Of a stretch of 64,000 bases of DNA, positions 19,592 through 35,386 are shown piece after piece; the stretch's first letter is position 1; every line of letters begins with the position of its first letter. The notes under the pieces were generated by a model. That model did not search any database and had not been told where the DNA came from. It worked only from the letters and a program-made list of their open reading frames with translations. Both the position numbers and the translations under genes were made by a program. This stretch comes from Phycisphaerae bacterium. GTDB lineage: Bacteria; Planctomycetota; Phycisphaerae; JAAYCJ01. Location of the stretch: NCBI GenBank assembly GCA_041658725.1, contig JBAZZQ010000003.1, positions 22,903 through 86,902 of the forward strand, in the 5' to 3' direction.

Positions 19592-20362
19592 ATGGAGGTT
19601 GCTTTGAATCCAAAATCGAAAATTCAAAATCCCATACACGGTTTTACCCTTATTGAACTCCTGGTCGTGGTGGCAATCATCGCGGTGCTGATCTCGATTT
19701 TGCTTCCGGCGCTGAGCCAGGCAAGGGAGACGGCCCGCGCAGTATCCTGTTCCAGCAACCTGCATCAAATGGGGCTTGGGTTTATGATGTATGCGTCCGA
19801 CTACCAGGAGAAATTCCCTCCCTATGCGACCAGCAGCAATTGGGGGCGGTTTGCCTGGAAAATCGAGTGGTGGCCAAGTAACTCGTGCACAGGGCCACGG
19901 GTCCTGGCGGAAAAGAATTACATCGATCACAGCGGAGGGCTTTACGCGTGCGCCGCGGCCAAGCATCCCAGCGGGGCGGCTTACTATCGATGGTCTTCCT
20001 GGATGTTGGACGCCGAGCCGCCCGGAGCTATGGATTATGCGTACCTGGGAAACAATTATTTTTTGTCCGACTATGGCCGGGGATATGCCTATTCGCCCGC
20101 GGGATTAAATTCCCGATTCTACTTGACGAAGATCGAAAGCGCTGATGTCACCGGGTTTCCCTTGATGCAGGACTGGGCCTCCGATTATTGGTATACGTGG
20201 AACGAGTCCCCCCAGAACATTACCTGGCACCAGAAAAAGATGAACGTTCTCATCGTAGACGGCCATGTGACCACCGTCAATTACATGGACAACCGCCATT
20301 GGGCCACGTATACGGGATTTTGTTTCAACGGCTCCGGGCTGGGGTACGCCTACCAACCGTAA
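19592..20362 (+). CDS. DUF1559 / H-X9-DG domain protein with prepilin-type N-terminal cleavage/methylation domain (pseudopilin-like)
   Basis: N-terminal [31 protein letters not shown]-terminal [15 protein letters not shown] fits the H-X9-DG pattern. 256 aa. Confidence 0.85.
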
Positions 20363-23470: not shown

Positions 23471-23626
23471 CCACCATCAACGGGGGTTAGAGAAAATTTG
23501 AAACCTCTCCATAAGAGTCGGTGAGTATAATGAAGGTAGCAGGCGATAAGCAGTCGGTAATTTTGTTAGGATCGGCAATTGAATCGGCAGAGTGAAGTTC
23601 ATACATATCCCTTTGGTAAACCGGCA

Positions 23627-26593
23627 ATGCGACCCAGACGTTATGGGAAGGTCACCGGTTGGATAGGTCTTGTTTTTCTTATTGTCGGGAGCCCAAATCA
23701 ATTCGGTGTCCAGGCGGAACCGGTAACCCTCCATTTATGGAACATTCCTCCCAAAAGTTCAACCCAGCCCCTGGAGATCGCCCGGCGGCGGACGTTTGAC
23801 GCTTTCTGCCGACTACATCCCGAGATCAAGGTCCAAGCCATGGTCCCCATGAAGATCGAGGGACCGGCCGCGGAAGGCAATGAATTTCTGGCCGTGGCCG
23901 GGGGCGTGGCCCCGGATGTCTTTTACCTCTTTGGCCGAAAGATCGGAGATTATTACAGTCAAGGCTTTCTGGAACCCCTGGATTCCTATCTGGCCGGTTA
24001 CGTCAAGGCGACGGGAAGGCCTTACGTCGGGATCAATGCTCCCTCCCCGGTCTGGGAACTTTGTCCGATCAACCATCGGATTTATTCTGTACCTTACCTG
24101 TACTACTCCATGGCCCTGATGGCTCGAAAGGACCTGTTTGCTCGAGCGGGAGTGCCGTTAAAACCCTTGGCAGACTGGGAGGAACTTTATACGACGGCCC
24201 GGCGGCTGACCTGGCTGCCGGACAAAGAGCCGGACGCCAAGCCGGGGGATAAAGGCGTGTACGGCCTGCATTTTCGGACGGGGGTCTATGCGGGTTGGCA
24301 CATGCTCCAGTACATCTGGAGTTCTGGGAGCGAGGTCGTCCGGTCCTATTTTCCTCGACCGGAGGGAACGCTTGTCGAGGTCCCTCCCCCGCCCGTTGAC
24401 TATCGGCAGTGGGGGATCGCGATCAGTGATGCCAATCGCTATTACCCAAAACTCCTGGAACTGGAGGCCCGCCTTCGGGCCCTGAAAGTGCCATCCGATT
24501 ACGGTATGACCGATCTGACGTGGCGGCTCGATGTGGATAACCCGCAAGGGGCGGCGGTCCTGGCCTTCATCCGGCGATTGGTCCATACGCCCTGGCTTCG
24601 CTGCGCCAAGGACCACCCGAACCGTGAATTCGACCTGACTCCTAAGATGCAAACGACCCGGCTCGCCCGGTGCCCGATCTGCCGGACAGAGGTGGATATT
24701 TCCCGGCCCGATGGCCGACGGCGAGTGTATACCGGCGTGGTGTCCGATGACGACGGAACCAACACCCGAAACCTCCGTATCGAGTTCGCGATGAAGATCG
24801 GGGTGCTGGAAGAGGTATCCGATCCCTTGGAGGTAACTACCCTGGCACCTCTGCCGTTTCCGAGCCGGACCCGGGACATTCCGCGGGCCGCCTTCATTGC
24901 CGGGCACTACCTGGCGATCAATGCCACTCAGAAAGACCCACGGGTCAAGGAGGCGGCCTGGAAGTACATCGACTTCATGACCGGTCCTGAGGCCCAGCGG
25001 ATTCGGGTGGAGACCTACGTCGATTACGGCCTGGCGGAATTCATCCGTCCGGCCAACCTCCAAGCTCTTGGCTATGAGGTGGAATTAAATCGAATCCCCA
25101 AGTCTCGACTGGTCCTATGGGATGAACTCGAACGCCACGCCCGCGTCGAACCTTACTGCCGGGGCTTTCAGCACGTGATGACCCGGGAACTAGGAATGAC
25201 CATTGATGGAATCCTCGGGGACAAACCTGATTCCCTTGGCGTGTTTCATCGCGATCCCCAGATCCTGCTGGCCGAGACTTGCCGCCGGGTCAATACGATG
25301 ATTCTGGGTGAAATGCCGAAAGAGGTTCTGCACCGGCGGGAAAGGATCGGCTGGCTGATCGGGGTCGTCGTCCTCGGCTTGCTGGGTTTGGGAACCTATG
25401 GCACGATCCGCTTCGCCGTCCGGATGCATCAGAAGGCCGCCGATCTGGAGGGCCTGGGAGTCCGGGGCAAGACCGGACGGCGGACGTTGGCTATCCTCAT
25501 CTTTCTGACCCCTGCGATTGGAACCATTCTCTTGTGGGGATACTATCCCTTGATCCGGGGGACGATCATGGCCTTTCAGGACTTCAAGATCCTCGGCGGC
25601 TCCCGGTTTGTCGGTCTCCGCAACTTCGTCGAAACCGCTAGCAGTCCGGAATTCTGGCGATACATGCTCCAGACGTTTGAGTTTCTCGGATTGAACTTGG
25701 CCATGGGATTCTTTGCCCCCATCGCTCTGGCCATCTTTCTGACCGAGGTGCCCCGGGGAAAAATCCTCTTTCGCACGATCTATTATCTCCCGGCGGTCAC
25801 CACGGGAATCGTGACATTGTTCCTGTGGAAACAATTGCTCTACGATCCGGCGCCTACGGGATTGATTAACGGCATTATCCTGTCTTTTAACGATCTTTCC
25901 CCTATATGGATGATCTTCCTAAAGGGATTACTCGTCGTTTTCCTGGTCTGCCTGATTCTGGGAAATGTGCGGTTGGGACTTAGTCGCGATGTTTCACTTT
26001 GGGGACGAATCATTCCGATGGTTATCGCCCTGGTGGGAACGATTTATTTTTTTTGGCGAGTGATTGAAATCTTGAGGGGTGGATCGCCGATGGCCCTGGC
26101 CCGGTGGTTTGCCGCTTCCTGGGCCTTCCGGCCGCAGGAGTTCCTGAAGGACCCGCACTTGGCCATGATTTGGATCATCATCCCGATGATCTGGGCGGGG
26201 GTGGGTCCCGGGTGCTTGATCTATCTGGCGGCCCTGAAGGGTATTCCCGAGGAGCAGTACGAGGCGGCCGATTTGGACGGCGCGGGAATTTGGTCGAAGA
26301 TCACGAACGTGGTCTTTCCGAATCTCTCCGCCCTGATCTTGATCAATTTTGTGGGGGCGGTCATCGGGGCCATGCAATCATCGTCCAATATTTTTGTGAT
26401 GACCGGGGGCGGGCCGGAGGATGTGACCATGACCGTGGGGTTATCGGTCTGGTTCAACGCTTACATGTTCTTGAACTTCGGCTTGGCCACCGCCCAGGCC
26501 TGGGTTCTTGGAGCCTTGCTCATCGGGTTTACCTTATACCAACTGCGTCTGCTTAACAGGATGCAATTTCGCACCACAAGTGCCAGGAGATAA
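23627..26593 (+). CDS. Fused ABC sugar transporter: family-1 solute-binding protein domain fused to MalF/UgpA-type permease
   Basis: An N-terminal TM anchor and a ~540-aa SBP-like domain are followed by a six-TM permease carrying the EAA loop YEAADLDGAGIWSKITNVVFP and YYLPAVTTGIVTLFLWKQL. 1004 aa from the ORF start at 23579; the in-frame ATG at 23627 (MRPRR...) is an equally plausible start. Confidence 0.8.
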   Translation: MRPRRYGKVTGWIGLVFLIVGSPNQFGVQAEPVTLHLWNIPPKSSTQPLEIARRRTFDAFCRLHPEIKVQAMVPMKIEGPAAEGNEFLAVAGGVAPDVFYLFGRKIGDYYSQGFLEPLDSYLAGYVKATGRPYVGINAPSPVWELCPINHRIYSVPYLYYSMALMARKDLFARAGVPLKPLADWEELYTTARRLTWLPDKEPDAKPGDKGVYGLHFRTGVYAGWHMLQYIWSSGSEVVRSYFPRPEGTLVEVPPPPVDYRQWGIAISDANRYYPKLLELEARLRALKVPSDYGMTDLTWRLDVDNPQGAAVLAFIRRLVHTPWLRCAKDHPNREFDLTPKMQTTRLARCPICRTEVDISRPDGRRRVYTGVVSDDDGTNTRNLRIEFAMKIGVLEEVSDPLEVTTLAPLPFPSRTRDIPRAAFIAGHYLAINATQKDPRVKEAAWKYIDFMTGPEAQRIRVETYVDYGLAEFIRPANLQALGYEVELNRIPKSRLVLWDELERHARVEPYCRGFQHVMTRELGMTIDGILGDKPDSLGVFHRDPQILLAETCRRVNTMILGEMPKEVLHRRERIGWLIGVVVLGLLGLGTYGTIRFAVRMHQKAADLEGLGVRGKTGRRTLAILIFLTPAIGTILLWGYYPLIRGTIMAFQDFKILGGSRFVGLRNFVETASSPEFWRYMLQTFEFLGLNLAMGFFAPIALAIFLTEVPRGKILFRTIYYLPAVTTGIVTLFLWKQLLYDPAPTGLINGIILSFNDLSPIWMIFLKGLLVVFLVCLILGNVRLGLSRDVSLWGRIIPMVIALVGTIYFFWRVIEILRGGSPMALARWFAASWAFRPQEFLKDPHLAMIWIIIPMIWAGVGPGCLIYLAALKGIPEEQYEAADLDGAGIWSKITNVVFPNLSALILINFVGAVIGAMQSSSNIFVMTGGGPEDVTMTVGLSVWFNAYMFLNFGLATAQAWVLGALLIGFTLYQLRLLNRMQFRTTSARR

Positions 26594-26597
26594 GTCC

Positions 26598-28616
26598 ATG
26601 CCGGTCATCCCCGTGGTGGGGCGAAAATCGTTCGGAATGCGAATGCTCATCGGGGCGGTATACGCCCTGCTGGCCCTGGGGGCGGTGACCATGATTTATC
26701 CCTTTGGCTTGATGCTCGCGACCGCGACTACCGGGAACGCGGACTGGGAGCAGTTTCGAATGATCCCCAGATACTGGACCGATATGGCCGAACAATTCCG
26801 AAAGTACATCATCGATAAGAACACCCTCGATGTCCTGGCTTTCGACTTTGAGCAGGAGCACTGGTTTACAGTCCGGGACGTGGAGACTCGGGATTTTCGG
26901 GACCTGATGACGCGGCCCGCAAGGGTGTGCCACGCCATCGATGCCGATTATGCCGATTTCATGGCCGGGATCGATCCTGACTTAAAGCAACTTCATTTTG
27001 TTGACTACGGGGACCTTCAATACAGCGTGCTCTCCCTTCGCCCGGAATATTTCCGGTGGTTGACAGCCAAGTACGGGCAGATCGATCGACTGAATGTCTT
27101 GTATGACGACACGGCGGAAACGTGGGAGGATTTCGGACTGCCCCGAGGCTACAATGGGGCTTGGGAGGCCCGACCCCTCTCGGCCCGGAACCGGGATTGG
27201 CGTGAGTTTGTTGTGACCCGCCCGTACGCCAAACAGAGGCTGGTTTCCTTGGATTACCTGGTCTTTGCCGCCCTGCGGGCCGATTACAACAACGTGCAGG
27301 TCCTCAATAAGACGGTAGGAACCTCTTTTAAGCGGCTTTTGGATGTTCGATGGACGGTGCTTTCGAAATTTGAATGGGGCCGGGACCTCCAACGAAAGAT
27401 TCTCCGACGGGATATTCCCTTGGCGCAGATTCGCCTGAGAACGTTGGCCCGTCCCGCGTTCGAAACGTTTGGCCATCGCCTGTTTCCCGGAAAACGGGTT
27501 GCCTTTACGCCCAACGCTCCGCAGGACGAGGAAGCCCGCGGCATCTGGATGCACTTTGTCCGGTCGGACGACTGCAAGTTAGAGTTCATTGATCCTGTGG
27601 ACCCGGCGGTTCTCTGGCGGCAATTTCTGGAAAAACGTTATGGAAACGTGCGGGATATCAACACTGCTCACGGGACCGCCTATGTTGCGGCTGATCAGGT
27701 TCGCTTGCCTTCGACTGTGATTGATTGGGGCGCTTTCCGTAACAATCGGGTGGACATCGTCAAAAAATTCCTGCTCGGCAATTTTCAGATGGTGCTGAAT
27801 TTTGTGCTCCTCCATGGGCGGGCTCTCTTAAATACGCTGATTCTTATCCTGCTGACCCTTTGCGGGACGCTGACGATAAATCCCTTGGCCGCGTATGTCC
27901 TGAGCCGGTTCCGGCTGCGGTACGCTCATCATATCCTGGTCTTTCTCCTGGCCACGATGGCCTTTCCCGCCGAGGTCATCATGATCCCCGGCTTCTTGAT
28001 GGTAAAACAGTTCCCCCTGGGAATCCTGATCCTGGGCGGGGCGGCCGGATTGATGTTTTTCCTGGTTCGGTCGCTTCTGGGGATTCGTTTGCCGCTTTTT
28101 TGGAGCGTGCTGGTCGGAGGAATTCTTTCGCTGGCCGCGGGATGGTACCTGCCCCCGGTCGCGGCCCGGATGATGGGCCGGCCGGACCTGAACGTCAGCC
28201 TGATGAACACCTTCTGGGCCTTGGTCTTACCCGGCCTCGCCAGCGGCTACTCAATCTTTTTGTTGAAAGGGTTCTTCGACTCTCTGCCCCCCGAGCTCTA
28301 CGAGGCGGCCATGCTGGACGGGGCTTCCGAGACTCGAATGTTCCTGATGATTACCCTGCCCCTGTGCAAACCGGTCCTGGCCGTCATTGCCCTTGGGGCC
28401 TTCACGGCCGCCTACGGCTCGTTTATGTTCGCCTTCCTGACCTGCCAGGACCCCAAAATGTGGACGCTGATGGTCTTTTTGTACCAGTTTCAGCAACAGT
28501 ATTCGGTACCTTTGGTGATGGCCTCGCTGGTCGTCGCCGCCGTGCCTACCCTGCTGGTCTTTATTTTTGCCCAGAATATTATCCTGCGCGGAATTGTTAT
28601 TCCAACGTTTAAATAG
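26598..28616 (+). CDS. ABC sugar permease (MalG/UgpE-type) with ~370-aa extracytoplasmic insertion after TM1
   Basis: AGGAGA RBS 7 nt before the ATG at 26598. TM1 is followed by a long soluble segment, then a canonical permease core with the EAA motif YEAAMLDGASETRMFLMITLP. Confidence 0.8.
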   Translation: MPVIPVVGRKSFGMRMLIGAVYALLALGAVTMIYPFGLMLATATTGNADWEQFRMIPRYWTDMAEQFRKYIIDKNTLDVLAFDFEQEHWFTVRDVETRDFRDLMTRPARVCHAIDADYADFMAGIDPDLKQLHFVDYGDLQYSVLSLRPEYFRWLTAKYGQIDRLNVLYDDTAETWEDFGLPRGYNGAWEARPLSARNRDWREFVVTRPYAKQRLVSLDYLVFAALRADYNNVQVLNKTVGTSFKRLLDVRWTVLSKFEWGRDLQRKILRRDIPLAQIRLRTLARPAFETFGHRLFPGKRVAFTPNAPQDEEARGIWMHFVRSDDCKLEFIDPVDPAVLWRQFLEKRYGNVRDINTAHGTAYVAADQVRLPSTVIDWGAFRNNRVDIVKKFLLGNFQMVLNFVLLHGRALLNTLILILLTLCGTLTINPLAAYVLSRFRLRYAHHILVFLLATMAFPAEVIMIPGFLMVKQFPLGILILGGAAGLMFFLVRSLLGIRLPLFWSVLVGGILSLAAGWYLPPVAARMMGRPDLNVSLMNTFWALVLPGLASGYSIFLLKGFFDSLPPELYEAAMLDGASETRMFLMITLPLCKPVLAVIALGAFTAAYGSFMFAFLTCQDPKMWTLMVFLYQFQQQYSVPLVMASLVVAAVPTLLVFIFAQNIILRGIVIPTFK

Positions 28617-28628
28617 AGGTGTGTCATT

Positions 28629-30512
28629 ATGATAAACGCGACCGATTTTCAATTCAAAGGTGCCTGGTGGCATTCGCCGTCGATCCTGGAGCCCATGCCC
28701 GGACCGTGGGCTGGATATGAGATATTTGGCCTGGACGTGGTGGAGGCCTGGAAGCGAATCCTCGACTGGCACAAGAACCACGGCATGGACGGGATTATCA
28801 CGCAGATATCGTCGCATTTTAAGGACCGGACCCTCATGGGCTGGGGCTTTCAATACGTCCTGGACTTTGACCGCCATCCCGAGGCCCGGACGTTCGGCCT
28901 GGAATTTGTTCGACGCAATCGCCGGCGAATGGAGCAAATTCTGGAGCACGCCGATAAACTTGGGGTGAAAATGTACATCCACCATTACAATTTCATGGCC
29001 CCGAAAACCTTCGTAGAGGCCCACCCCGCGATTCACGCCAAGTGGAAGATCATCACCAACCAGGCCCTGAACGTCTACATGGCCAACAGCCGGGCGATAT
29101 GCGACCGGATCGGCACGCTTTACGGAAACCTATGCTGGCGGGAACCGGTGTACCAGGAGTTCATGAAGGATCTGTGGGATGAACTTTTTGCCAAGTTTCC
29201 CTCTCTGGCGGGCGTGCTGACCACTCCGGGCGAAAACCAGTATTGCCTGTGTCCCGATTGCACGCGGGGAGCGCGGTCGTATGAGGGAAGCGAGCTGCTG
29301 CGGGCTCGGAATGCAAACGCCAACGAATTCATCGGCCATTTCTGCGGCACGTTTCGGGAAGCCATGGCGAAAAATGGCAAGCAAGGGATATTCCGGCTTT
29401 GGGGCGTCAAACGCTCCGCCGACGAGCGGATCGACACCTCGATATACCCCCGCGATATTCCCTACATGATCAAATACCACTGGTTCGACAATGTCGATGC
29501 CGGCCCCGACCCCTTGATCGCCGATTGGATTGGCCGCGGGTTCCGGGTCTGGGTTTCGCACGATCTTTGGGGCGAGAACGCGGGGCCGGTAGCCTGGAAT
29601 CGTCCGGCGTACATCCGCCGGTTCGTAGACGAGTGCCGCCGGTTGGGTGTCGAGGGCATCGTCAGCCATCAGAACAACGACTGGGGCACTGCGGGCATTC
29701 CCGGTTGGGTCCAGGGGCTGAACCTCAAATCTTATTGCCGGTGCCTGGCCGGTTCGCCGGATTCGGATACGGATTGGATCGAGAAGGAATATCTTCGCAA
29801 ATTCGGTCCCGTCGGACCCCGTATCCAAGCCGCCATCGAGCAATACAGCGACTTCGTCTTCAATATCACCAAGCTCGTTATAATTGGAGGCGAGGGCTAT
29901 ACCTTTGGTTTACCGCACCCGCTGTATCCGGGGGTGGGTCGGATCGGTAATCGCGTGGATGACTGGGTGCGAGGCGACTTGGGTGAAATTGCTGACTACA
30001 TCGAATACGCACGAGCCCACGGCTGGCCGGACGACCTGTTTAGAACATTGTATATGGCAGATCGCGATCCCTTCCGGCGACTGGAGCGCATGCGGGACTC
30101 CGCCGCCCGAGCCGTCGAAGAGCTAGACAAGATCAAGGATGAGGCACCTTCGGAGTCGCTGGGAGAGTACGAGTGGATTACCACCAGCGCCCGCCTCTGC
30201 CTGCACCAGGCGCAGGAGTATTGGCATCTATGCCGGGTCGCCGTTTTACGCGCCGCATGGATCGGGGAAACCCGGCCCACCGTGCGAGGCGAGTTGGCAC
30301 AGCGGGTCTTGGAGGAAATGGAACAGGCCCTGGCTGCCGTGCATCGGATCCGCGAGGACCTCTTGGAGCTTCAAACCGCCTCAATGGACTTCGCCCGGAT
30401 TCTTCGTTGCCGATTTCCCATTGCCAACGATGGGGATCGCATGTTTTACCTGCCTTCGAGAGAAAACGAGTATGAGCAACTGAAACGGGAAATGAAGGGT
30501 AGCGATGTTTAA
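28629..30512 (+). CDS. hypothetical protein (putative carbohydrate-active enzyme by context)
   Basis: 627-aa ORF with an AGAGGTG RBS. No firm family motif recognised. Confidence 0.5.
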   Translation: MINATDFQFKGAWWHSPSILEPMPGPWAGYEIFGLDVVEAWKRILDWHKNHGMDGIITQISSHFKDRTLMGWGFQYVLDFDRHPEARTFGLEFVRRNRRRMEQILEHADKLGVKMYIHHYNFMAPKTFVEAHPAIHAKWKIITNQALNVYMANSRAICDRIGTLYGNLCWREPVYQEFMKDLWDELFAKFPSLAGVLTTPGENQYCLCPDCTRGARSYEGSELLRARNANANEFIGHFCGTFREAMAKNGKQGIFRLWGVKRSADERIDTSIYPRDIPYMIKYHWFDNVDAGPDPLIADWIGRGFRVWVSHDLWGENAGPVAWNRPAYIRRFVDECRRLGVEGIVSHQNNDWGTAGIPGWVQGLNLKSYCRCLAGSPDSDTDWIEKEYLRKFGPVGPRIQAAIEQYSDFVFNITKLVIIGGEGYTFGLPHPLYPGVGRIGNRVDDWVRGDLGEIADYIEYARAHGWPDDLFRTLYMADRDPFRRLERMRDSAARAVEELDKIKDEAPSESLGEYEWITTSARLCLHQAQEYWHLCRVAVLRAAWIGETRPTVRGELAQRVLEEMEQALAAVHRIREDLLELQTASMDFARILRCRFPIANDGDRMFYLPSRENEYEQLKREMKGSDV

Positions 30513-34258: not shown

Positions 34259-35386
34259 GTGGCGCAGGTATTATTGGAAAAAGTGTCGAAGGTTTATCCC
34301 GGCGGCATCAAGGCCGTGCGGGACGTGGACCTGTCGATTCAGGATTCGGAATTCGTGGTTCTGGTCGGGCCTTCCGGCTGCGGCAAGACCACGACGCTGC
34401 GAATGATTGCGGGCCTGGAAGAAATCTCCGGCGGGTCGATCAAGATCGGCGATCATGTGGTCAATGACGTGCCGCCGAAGGATCGCGACATCGCGATGGT
34501 GTTTCAGAATTACGCGCTGTACCCGCACATGACGGTGTACAAGAACATGGCCTTTGGCCTCAAGCTCCGGCGAATGCCCAAGGACCAGATTCACGAGCGG
34601 GTGATGGGCGCAGCGAAGATTCTGGGCATCGATCAGCTTCTGGACCGCAAGCCCAAGGCACTCTCGGGCGGGCAGCGCCAGCGGGTGGCCGTCGGCCGGG
34701 CAATCGTGCGTCAGCCGAAGGCGTTTCTGTTCGACGAGCCCCTCAGCAACCTGGACGCCAAGATGCGGGTGGAGACGCGGGCGGAACTTAAAAAACTGCA
34801 CCGGCGACTCAAGACCACGACGGTATATGTCACCCACGATCAGGAAGAGGCGATGACGCTGGGCGACCGGGTGGTGGTGATGAAGGACGGCGAGATTCAG
34901 CAGGTGGAGCATCCGCTGAAGATTTACGACCGACCGGTGAACCGATTTGTGGCGGGCTTTTTAGGAACACCGCCGATGAACTTTTTCACCGGGATGATCC
35001 GGTACCGCAACGACGGCGTGTATTTTGAGTACGGCAGCGACTCGATCCGGCTGGCGGATCGCTGGAAGGATCGATTGAGCAAGTATAAAGATATGGAAAT
35101 GGTATTGGGCGTACGGCCCGAAAATTTCAGTCCGCAGTCCGAAGGCAAGGTGGCCGGCAGGGATAATGCGATGAAGATGAAGATTGAAGTGGTGGAACCG
35201 CTGGGCGACAAGATGGACGTGTACATGGCGATGAAGGCGCATCCGCATATCGTTTGCCGCGTGGATTCGCACGCGGGATTGAAGGAAGGTCAGGAAGTCA
35301 CCTTAGCCATCGATATTCAGCAGGTCCACGTCTTCGAGCCCGGAGAAAAAGGAATTAATGTAACACAAGAACTAAACAACATGTAA
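34259..35386 (+). CDS. ABC transporter ATP-binding protein, MalK/MsmK/UgpC-type (sugar import ATPase)
   Basis: Walker [13 protein letters not shown] signature [15 protein letters not shown], and a C-terminal MalK-like regulatory domain. GTG start with an AAGGAG RBS. Confidence 0.9.

Follow-up and report, generated by a model that had tools for sequence, protein, structure and literature searches.

Among described membrane subunits of ATP-binding cassette (ABC) sugar importers, MalG of Escherichia coli, AlgM2 of the Sphingomonas alginate importer and SugB of the mycobacterial trehalose importer come closest to the protein considered here; they comprise ~280-300 amino acids (aa), and the first periplasmic loop (P1) of AlgM2 and MalG, i.e. 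that between transmembrane helices (TMs) 1 and 2, has ~25-50 aa. From the MalFGK2 structure we take TM1 and TM2 of MalG to correspond to TM3 and TM4 of MalF. In OpuA and GlnPQ, homodimeric importers of other ABC families, the substrate-binding protein (SBP) is fused to the transmembrane domain (TMD), and we know of no report of a large accessory domain on the second TMD of these systems or of Bdellovibrio MalE-MalF. The latter is an SBP-TMD fusion within the maltose/CUT1 class (PMC6906923). Between TM3 and TM4 of MalF lies P2, which has been termed a unique extended periplasmic domain of the maltose transporter, most type I importers being without one; MalG P1 and MalF P2 contact MalE at its N-lobe all through the catalytic cycle, the P1 loop cross-links to this lobe, and the Kd of P2 for MalE is 7-22 µM (PMC6906923). 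Here we describe a permease gene (26598-28616, + strand) in a 64,000-nucleotide stretch of a Phycisphaerae bacterium genome (GenBank assembly GCA_041658725.1, contig JBAZZQ010000003.1, positions 22,903 to 86,902; this whole stretch is called the window, and positions are numbered within it). Its product is a MalG-type subunit in which a large, predicted periplasmic domain occupies the place of P1, and the gene lies directly behind one that encodes a permease fused to its own SBP; the domain probably helps to hold or serve this tethered binding protein.

A CUT1-class permease with an enlarged first periplasmic loop

The list of open reading frames (ORFs) gives an open frame at 26508-28616 (+), which from the ATG at 26598 yields a 672-aa product, and this product belongs to a type I sugar ABC importer of the CUT1 class, in which it is the second, MalG-type membrane subunit. 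BPD_transp_1 was the sole Pfam family found (aa 437-661, 30.7 bits against a gathering cut-off of 26.4), profile matches were obtained to AlgM2 (1.8e-18), MalG (9.6e-17) and also SugB, and the product has the MalG-like six-helix fold. The EAA coupling motif, EAAMLDGASETRMFLMITLP, as read from the translation, fits EAA-X3-G-X9-I-X-LP, with E569, G575 and A576 invariant. Encoded in the same gene string are its partner TMD, of the MalF/UgpA type, together with an SBP and an ATPase of the MalK type. The protein is an orthologue of neither MalG nor UgpE, because its scores fall far below the NCBIfam equivalog cut-offs (61.6 versus 261 bits for MalG, 59.3 versus 297 for UgpE; NF008231, NF008210), the matches covering the C-terminal ~120-140 aa only. 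An exact match at NCBI (P0001) is annotated 'MAG: carbohydrate ABC transporter permease [Phycisphaerae bacterium]', MAG standing for metagenome-assembled genome. The parts of the gene are as follows.

26598..28616, + strand: MalG/AlgM2-type ABC importer permease, periplasmic domain and stop codon included (672 aa)
26631..26726, + strand: TM1, running N-in to out (aa 12-43; from hydropathy, an AlphaFold2 helix at 12-43 and a basic N-terminus with R9, K10 and R15)
26727..27797, + strand: periplasmic α/β tandem-repeat domain (aa 44-400; from structure prediction and family conservation)
27714..27797, + strand: connecting helices into TM2 (aa 373-400; N395 invariant, V399 in 95%)
27798..28613, + strand: conserved TMD core, TM2-TM6 of the MalG fold (aa 401-672; TM2 at aa ~403-437)
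28008..28172, + strand: extra hydrophobic helical hairpin in the TM3-TM4 periplasmic loop, present in certain clades only (aa 471-525)
28302..28361, + strand: EAA coupling motif (aa 569-588)

The permease is thus more than twice the normal size for its type, and, as the initial annotation had proposed, the surplus is a soluble segment that separates TM1 from the conserved core. The same layout follows from hydropathy and from the AlphaFold2 model: TM1 occupies aa 12-43, the soluble part runs from aa 44 to ~400, and the membrane core comes after it. The size of ~370 aa given there was slightly too high, the large insert itself holding up at ~355-360 aa (~357 aa for aa 44-400), compared with the short P1 of AlgM2 and MalG, which also differ from the window protein in the extra TM3-TM4 hairpin found here. 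By prediction the insert is periplasmic and folded: basic residues lie in the N-terminus and in the TM2-TM3 loop, which orients the protein, and the predicted local distance difference test (pLDDT) reaches ~95 for the insert within the full-length model and 92.2 for the insert modelled alone (predicted TM-score, pTM, 0.90), so that a cytoplasmic location and disorder were both rejected. It is no chance feature: all 55 aligned homologues have the insert, at 347-408 aa, as do 70 paired loci, where it measures 319-530 aa.

The unusual length of the gene and an alternative upstream TTG at 26508 could point to an artefact, i.e. a mis-called start, a fused ORF or an assembly chimera. This is refuted by the data and has next to no probability: the architecture recurs in hundreds of independent assemblies, the upstream gene stops at 26593, 4 nt before the ATG at 26598, which follows the ribosome-binding site AGGAG at a distance of 8 nt, and an independent gene call on the public contig returned the identical 672-aa protein. 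The N-terminus MPxIxxVGRKS is moreover kept across the 55 aligned homologues (M1, G8 and R9 at ≥90%), and because of this conservation the start at 26598 is taken as correct.

Two further features of the membrane core were recorded. A hairpin between core TM3 and TM4 is found in the upstream partner as well (window ~25892-26074, aa ~772-832 of the 23579-26593 product), and all four combinations of presence and absence of the two hairpins occur across the 70 paired loci, the window having both; with and without the hairpin, the TM3-TM4 loop measures 61-67 versus 5 aa in the 26598-28616 subunit and 120-134 versus 52-74 aa in the partner. The TM5-TM6 periplasmic loop CQDPKMWTLMVFLYQFQ (window 28437-28505, aa 614-636) is among the best-conserved parts of the family, and Q617, M621, W622, T623, M625 and V626 are the same in all of 55 sequences. 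The loop lies where MalG has its P3 'scoop loop' and is shorter than its AlgM2 counterpart.

Repeat anatomy of the domain and its relation to glycosidases

By cutting the family alignment at the repeat boundaries and comparing the pieces profile against profile with hhalign, the insert was resolved into a half-repeat followed by four tandem repeats (R1-R4) of ~60-85 aa, which match each other pairwise with probabilities of 97.6-99.4%. They are laid out as follows, HMM denoting a hidden Markov model of the repeat and GH a glycoside hydrolase family.

26727..26906, + strand: N-terminal domain segment (aa 44-103; weak hhalign match to R4, 58%)
26907..27173, + strand: R1 (aa 104-192; hhalign 97.6-98.9% to R2-R4; HMM match at aa 150-182)
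27174..27368, + strand: R2 (aa 193-257; hhalign 97.9-99.3%; HMM match at aa 199-251)
27369..27518, + strand: R3, degenerate (aa 258-307; hhalign 97.6-99.4% at profile level; alignment columns 330-360)
27519..27713, + strand: R4, the best conserved, with the GH42-like hairpin WRQFLEKRYGNVRDINTAHGTAY (aa 308-372)

In distant homologues the N-terminal segment scores with the repeat HMM as a half-repeat consisting of the hairpin half only (aa 64-99 of P0089 and P0109), and the LN..YG hairpin of R3, lost in the clade of the window, is kept in distant homologues too. Each unit runs in the order helix (W..F), short strand, helix (Y..WL..KY), helix (LN..YGT) and an 'F..v.lP' tail. The model is mostly helical with four short strands (aa 130-132, 213-215, 278-280 and 331-333), which by their DSSP assignments probably pair into one small sheet, because DSSP calls only hydrogen-bonded strands and the domain has just these four. 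Across 267 family members the repeat HMM detected 2-7 copies per protein; the long variants (765-979 aa) carry extra repeats, and P0138, P0177, P0189 and P0235 (892-979 aa) have expanded inserts with five to seven detectable copies. The conserved residues of the insert are mainly proline, aromatic residues, asparagine and glycine and look structural, and the median identity to the window protein is 26% in the insert versus 68% in the TMD.

The repeat resembles a piece of certain glycosidases. Many homologues have Pfam GH42 matches, several per protein, in which the hairpin half of the repeat aligns with GH42 profile positions ~153-212, the window protein itself scoring 19 bits and so falling short of the threshold of 21 bits; when PDB sequences were searched by profile, the same ~40 residues matched GH42 enzymes, a GH14 β-amylase, GH50 agarases and others, and the repeat HMM also matches aa 541-581 of the neighbouring GH42-like enzyme. 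In GH42 β-galactosidase, as in GH14 β-amylase and GH50 agarase, this hairpin follows strand 4, whereas in the insert four to five tandem copies of the unit make up a separate domain, without a (β/α)8 barrel and without catalytic residues. The domain is an array of GH-A-type strand-helix-hairpin units and not a glycosidase. Membership in GH42 was rejected, the matches being to a short repeated motif with no barrel and no full (β/α)8 catalytic domain scoring above threshold. It is likewise highly improbable that the insert is a relic or active GH42-derived catalytic module coupling hydrolysis to uptake: the matches are to a repeated ~40-60-residue segment (profile positions ~114-212 of 376), no glutamate that could serve as catalytic acid/base or nucleophile is conserved at ≥80% in the insert, and among glutamates and aspartates only D49 and D117 reach this level, neither lying at a predicted strand end. 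A Foldseek search of the insert model against the PDB returned nothing below E=2, and the domain as a whole is without a solved structural relative.

The insert had initially been likened to the MalF P2 loop. As far as topology goes this stands, for P2 (residues 91-276 in E. coli) is also a large folded periplasmic domain inserted at a topologically equivalent site. As homology it does not: P2 is immunoglobulin-like, whereas the insert is an α/β tandem-repeat domain with no immunoglobulin-like fold and sits on the other, MalG-type subunit, and the two are not homologous.

The binding-protein fusion and the proposed role of the domain

The partner subunit and the ATPase of the gene string are given below.

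23579..26593, + strand: fusion of signal/anchor, SBP, TM and MalF/UgpA-type permease (~1004 aa)
34259..35386, + strand: MalK-type ATPase (ABC_tran, OB_MalK and TOBE) at the end of the gene string, the presumed energiser

In the 23579-26593 product, SBP and TMD are joined by a TM helix within one polypeptide (SBP_bac_1 at aa 73-252, TM at aa 589-614, BPD_transp_1 at aa 812-983), and the TMD is of the MalF/SugA/AlgM1 type; the partner is thus fused like Bdellovibrio MalE-MalF, OpuA and GlnPQ, which fixes the ratio of SBP to transporter at 1:1. Such a fusion lies immediately upstream of the insert-bearing permease in ~70 of 75 informative loci, as it does in the window. By a mirror-tree-type test on 67 non-redundant locus pairs, the divergence of the insert was found to track the SBP domain best (Spearman 0.785, versus 0.695 with its own TMD), and the partial correlation controlling for both TMDs was 0.54 for insert and SBP versus 0.19 for insert and TMD1. 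This covariation of sequence divergences is suggestive and would fit a coupling between insert and SBP. For the contact with the fused SBP or a large glycan, for which the initial annotation held the insert to be positioned, the near-obligate synteny and this correlation give indirect support only. The families of the neighbouring glycosidases vary by locus (GH94, GH20 and GH42), and the module is therefore generic and not tied to one substrate.

We propose the following arrangement. An autonomous ~357-aa α/β domain has taken the place of P1 in the MalG-type subunit, and this subunit would pair with the upstream one, whose substrate-binding domain is covalently fused via an extra TM helix, the MalK-like ATPase energising the complex. 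The periplasmic domain would then sit over the TMD dimer, where MalG P1 and MalF P2 touch MalE in E. coli, and would serve as a docking cradle, holding the tethered binding domain in position above the translocation pore through the ATP cycle. A docking platform of this kind is the most likely role, to which we give about an even chance, the SBP contact and the part in the transport cycle being drawn by analogy with the maltose importer; it is the best-supported one because the insert replaces P1 exactly and the fused-SBP partner is near-obligate.

Several observations weigh against a docking role. In Armatimonadaceae and Fimbriimonadia, insert-bearing permeases occur without an adjacent SBP-permease fusion (L027:1485-3925, L069:5366-7845 and L071:3514-5238), and a Fimbriimonadaceae fusion (L088:1969-4374), which lies on a short contig, is not followed downstream by a permease gene, so that the pairing of subunits in these lineages is presumed. 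At L087:5001-8083 a distant SBP-permease fusion of 749 aa has as its partner a permease of ordinary size (278 aa), which shows that a fused SBP can do without such a domain; the idea that it always requires one was rejected on this locus. Judged from the loci compared, the insert would predict a fused SBP, but a fused SBP would not predict the insert. The conserved insert positions, structural as they look, identify no interface. Lastly, the sequence pairs behind the mirror-tree correlation are not independent, and insert and SBP could be correlated just as well because a shared substrate drives the divergence of both, or simply because both are soluble domains that evolve fast.

The main rival to docking is glycan capture and hand-over, in which the repeat array would bind a periplasmic oligo- or polysaccharide like a tandem carbohydrate-binding module (CBM), concentrating or threading it towards the SBP or pore. 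The repeat motif is common to GH42, GH14, GH50, GH167 and the neighbouring GH42-like enzyme, the operon is of a polysaccharide-utilisation type (LacI regulator, BACON/dockerin, GH42-like and GH63/MGH1-like proteins), the copy number of 2 to 7 is as in CBM arrays, and the fast divergence of the insert relative to the TMD, together with GH families that vary by locus, fits substrate-specific adaptation. However, no conserved polar or aromatic platform is found among the structural-looking conserved positions, a search of Pfam matched no CBM family even at E≤10, lectins and CBMs gave no structural match either, and the GH42 segment resembled is the helical element after strand 4, on the barrel exterior and not at a sugar subsite. 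We hold glycan capture to be possible but unlikely.

Quite unlikely, too, is a reading in which the domain would be a new kind of accessory domain, a four-to-five-unit array arisen by serial duplication of one clan GH-A TIM-barrel strand-helix-hairpin unit, which would form with the tethered SBP a pre-assembled two-component receptor, the repeats engaging long glycan chains and feeding the SBP and pore. If true, this would define a distinct mechanistic subclass of ABC importers for oligosaccharide uptake across the Planctomycetota-Verrucomicrobiota-Chlamydiota (PVC) group, Armatimonadota and allied phyla.

The domain might also be an envelope scaffold or spacer that acts on neither SBP nor substrate and positions the transporter relative to peptidoglycan, to periplasmic glycosidases such as the GH42-like enzyme, or to an outer-membrane uptake machine. 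Its predicted size would allow it to project well into the periplasm, its motif is common to the co-encoded GH42-like enzyme, and among the matches listed the family is almost confined to diderm lineages with unusual envelopes (PVC, Armatimonadota, Omnitrophota and Sumerlaeota). Yet no third partner gene is conserved, the neighbours vary between loci with the SBP-fused permease as the sole invariant one, and no peptidoglycan-binding or known interaction motif was detected, which makes a scaffold distinctly improbable.

Some features of the partner gene were noted besides. With ~546 aa its SBP region exceeds the usual size, and a Cys/His cluster within it (C..DH ... CPIC) is a candidate metal site. 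A public gene call begins 87 codons later (917 aa) and would so drop the signal/anchor, and homologues of 1000-1029 aa favour the long form. In Planctomycetes bacterium syqfu (CP087563; L079:3641-6429) the two halves of the partner, SBP and permease, appear as separate ORFs; this 'unfused' SBP was rejected, there being a frameshift inside TM1 of the fusion gene, and the permease frame runs upstream through TM1 in another frame, which points to a sequencing error or a pseudogene.

Gene neighbourhood and distribution of the family

The gene string of the window, a tight one in which the 26598-28616 gene is the second permease, encodes, in order, a LacI regulator, a PEP-CTERM lectin-like protein, a BACON/dockerin protein, a DUF1559 pilin-like protein, a GH42-like enzyme, the SBP-TM-permease fusion and the 26598-28616 permease, followed by a 627-aa protein, a GH63/MGH1-like hydrolase, a GFO/IDH/MocA oxidoreductase, a xylose-isomerase-like TIM-barrel protein and the MalK-type ATPase. 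The DUF1559 protein (window 19592-20362; Pfam name SBP_bac_10), encoded just upstream of the GH42-like gene, has a prepilin-type N-terminal methylation motif. The 627-aa ORF directly downstream of the permease (window 28629-30512) has no Pfam family, no PDB sequence match and no obvious signal peptide, and may be an uncharacterised cytoplasmic glycoside-processing enzyme. Elsewhere, the start of the permease at L027 and L069 is overlapped by a conserved soluble ORF of ~200 aa that matches no Pfam family, and at L087 the neighbours include a glycoamylase-family (PF10091) protein and a GH3 enzyme.

A word-indexed search with the full protein returned 328 relatives, the full-length matches having 600-680 aa, and a search with the full-length alignment as query found at least 540 relatives among 185,579 species genomes (one genome per species). 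The matches listed come from Phycisphaerae and other Planctomycetota, Lentisphaerota/Victivallales, Kiritimatiellia, Verrucomicrobiota, Armatimonadota, Omnitrophota, Sumerlaeota and Firestonebacteria, with single MAGs of Gemmatimonadaceae, Actinomycetota and Chlamydiae, and the gene pair was also found in one Spirochaetes MAG; carriers in culture include Victivallis vadensis and Planctomycetes bacterium syqfu. Homologous insertions, which the initial annotation suggested looking for in other PVC genomes, thus exist there and reach well beyond these phyla. An exhaustive HMMER search with an insert-only profile yielded 802 clusters at 50% identity, 354 of them at E≤1e-10 and ~450 weaker ones at E between 1e-10 and 1e-3, and in the best 150 of the 802 nearly all matches start at residue ~44-46 of 600-700-aa proteins. 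Among strong matches the domain is, by these profile searches, essentially confined to this permease architecture.

No description of the domain or family was found in the searchable literature, and a 2026 review of bacterial glycoside transporters makes no mention of fused systems, of P2 or periplasmic loops, or of Planctomycetes and Verrucomicrobia. In public annotation the family appears as an ordinary 'carbohydrate ABC transporter permease' and its inserts as spurious GH42, which a dedicated domain model would correct. What the family offers is a second domain at the MalF-P2-equivalent position, unrelated to P2, much larger and on the opposite subunit, with hundreds of members and an apparent coupling to a tethered binding domain; being unrelated to P2 at an equivalent site, it is therefore a natural comparison for the roles of such accessory domains in SBP docking, substrate hand-over and allosteric coupling. 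It also bears on sugar uptake in poorly studied glycan-degrading phyla, i.e. Phycisphaerae, Lentisphaerota, Kiritimatiellia, Verrucomicrobiota and Armatimonadota.

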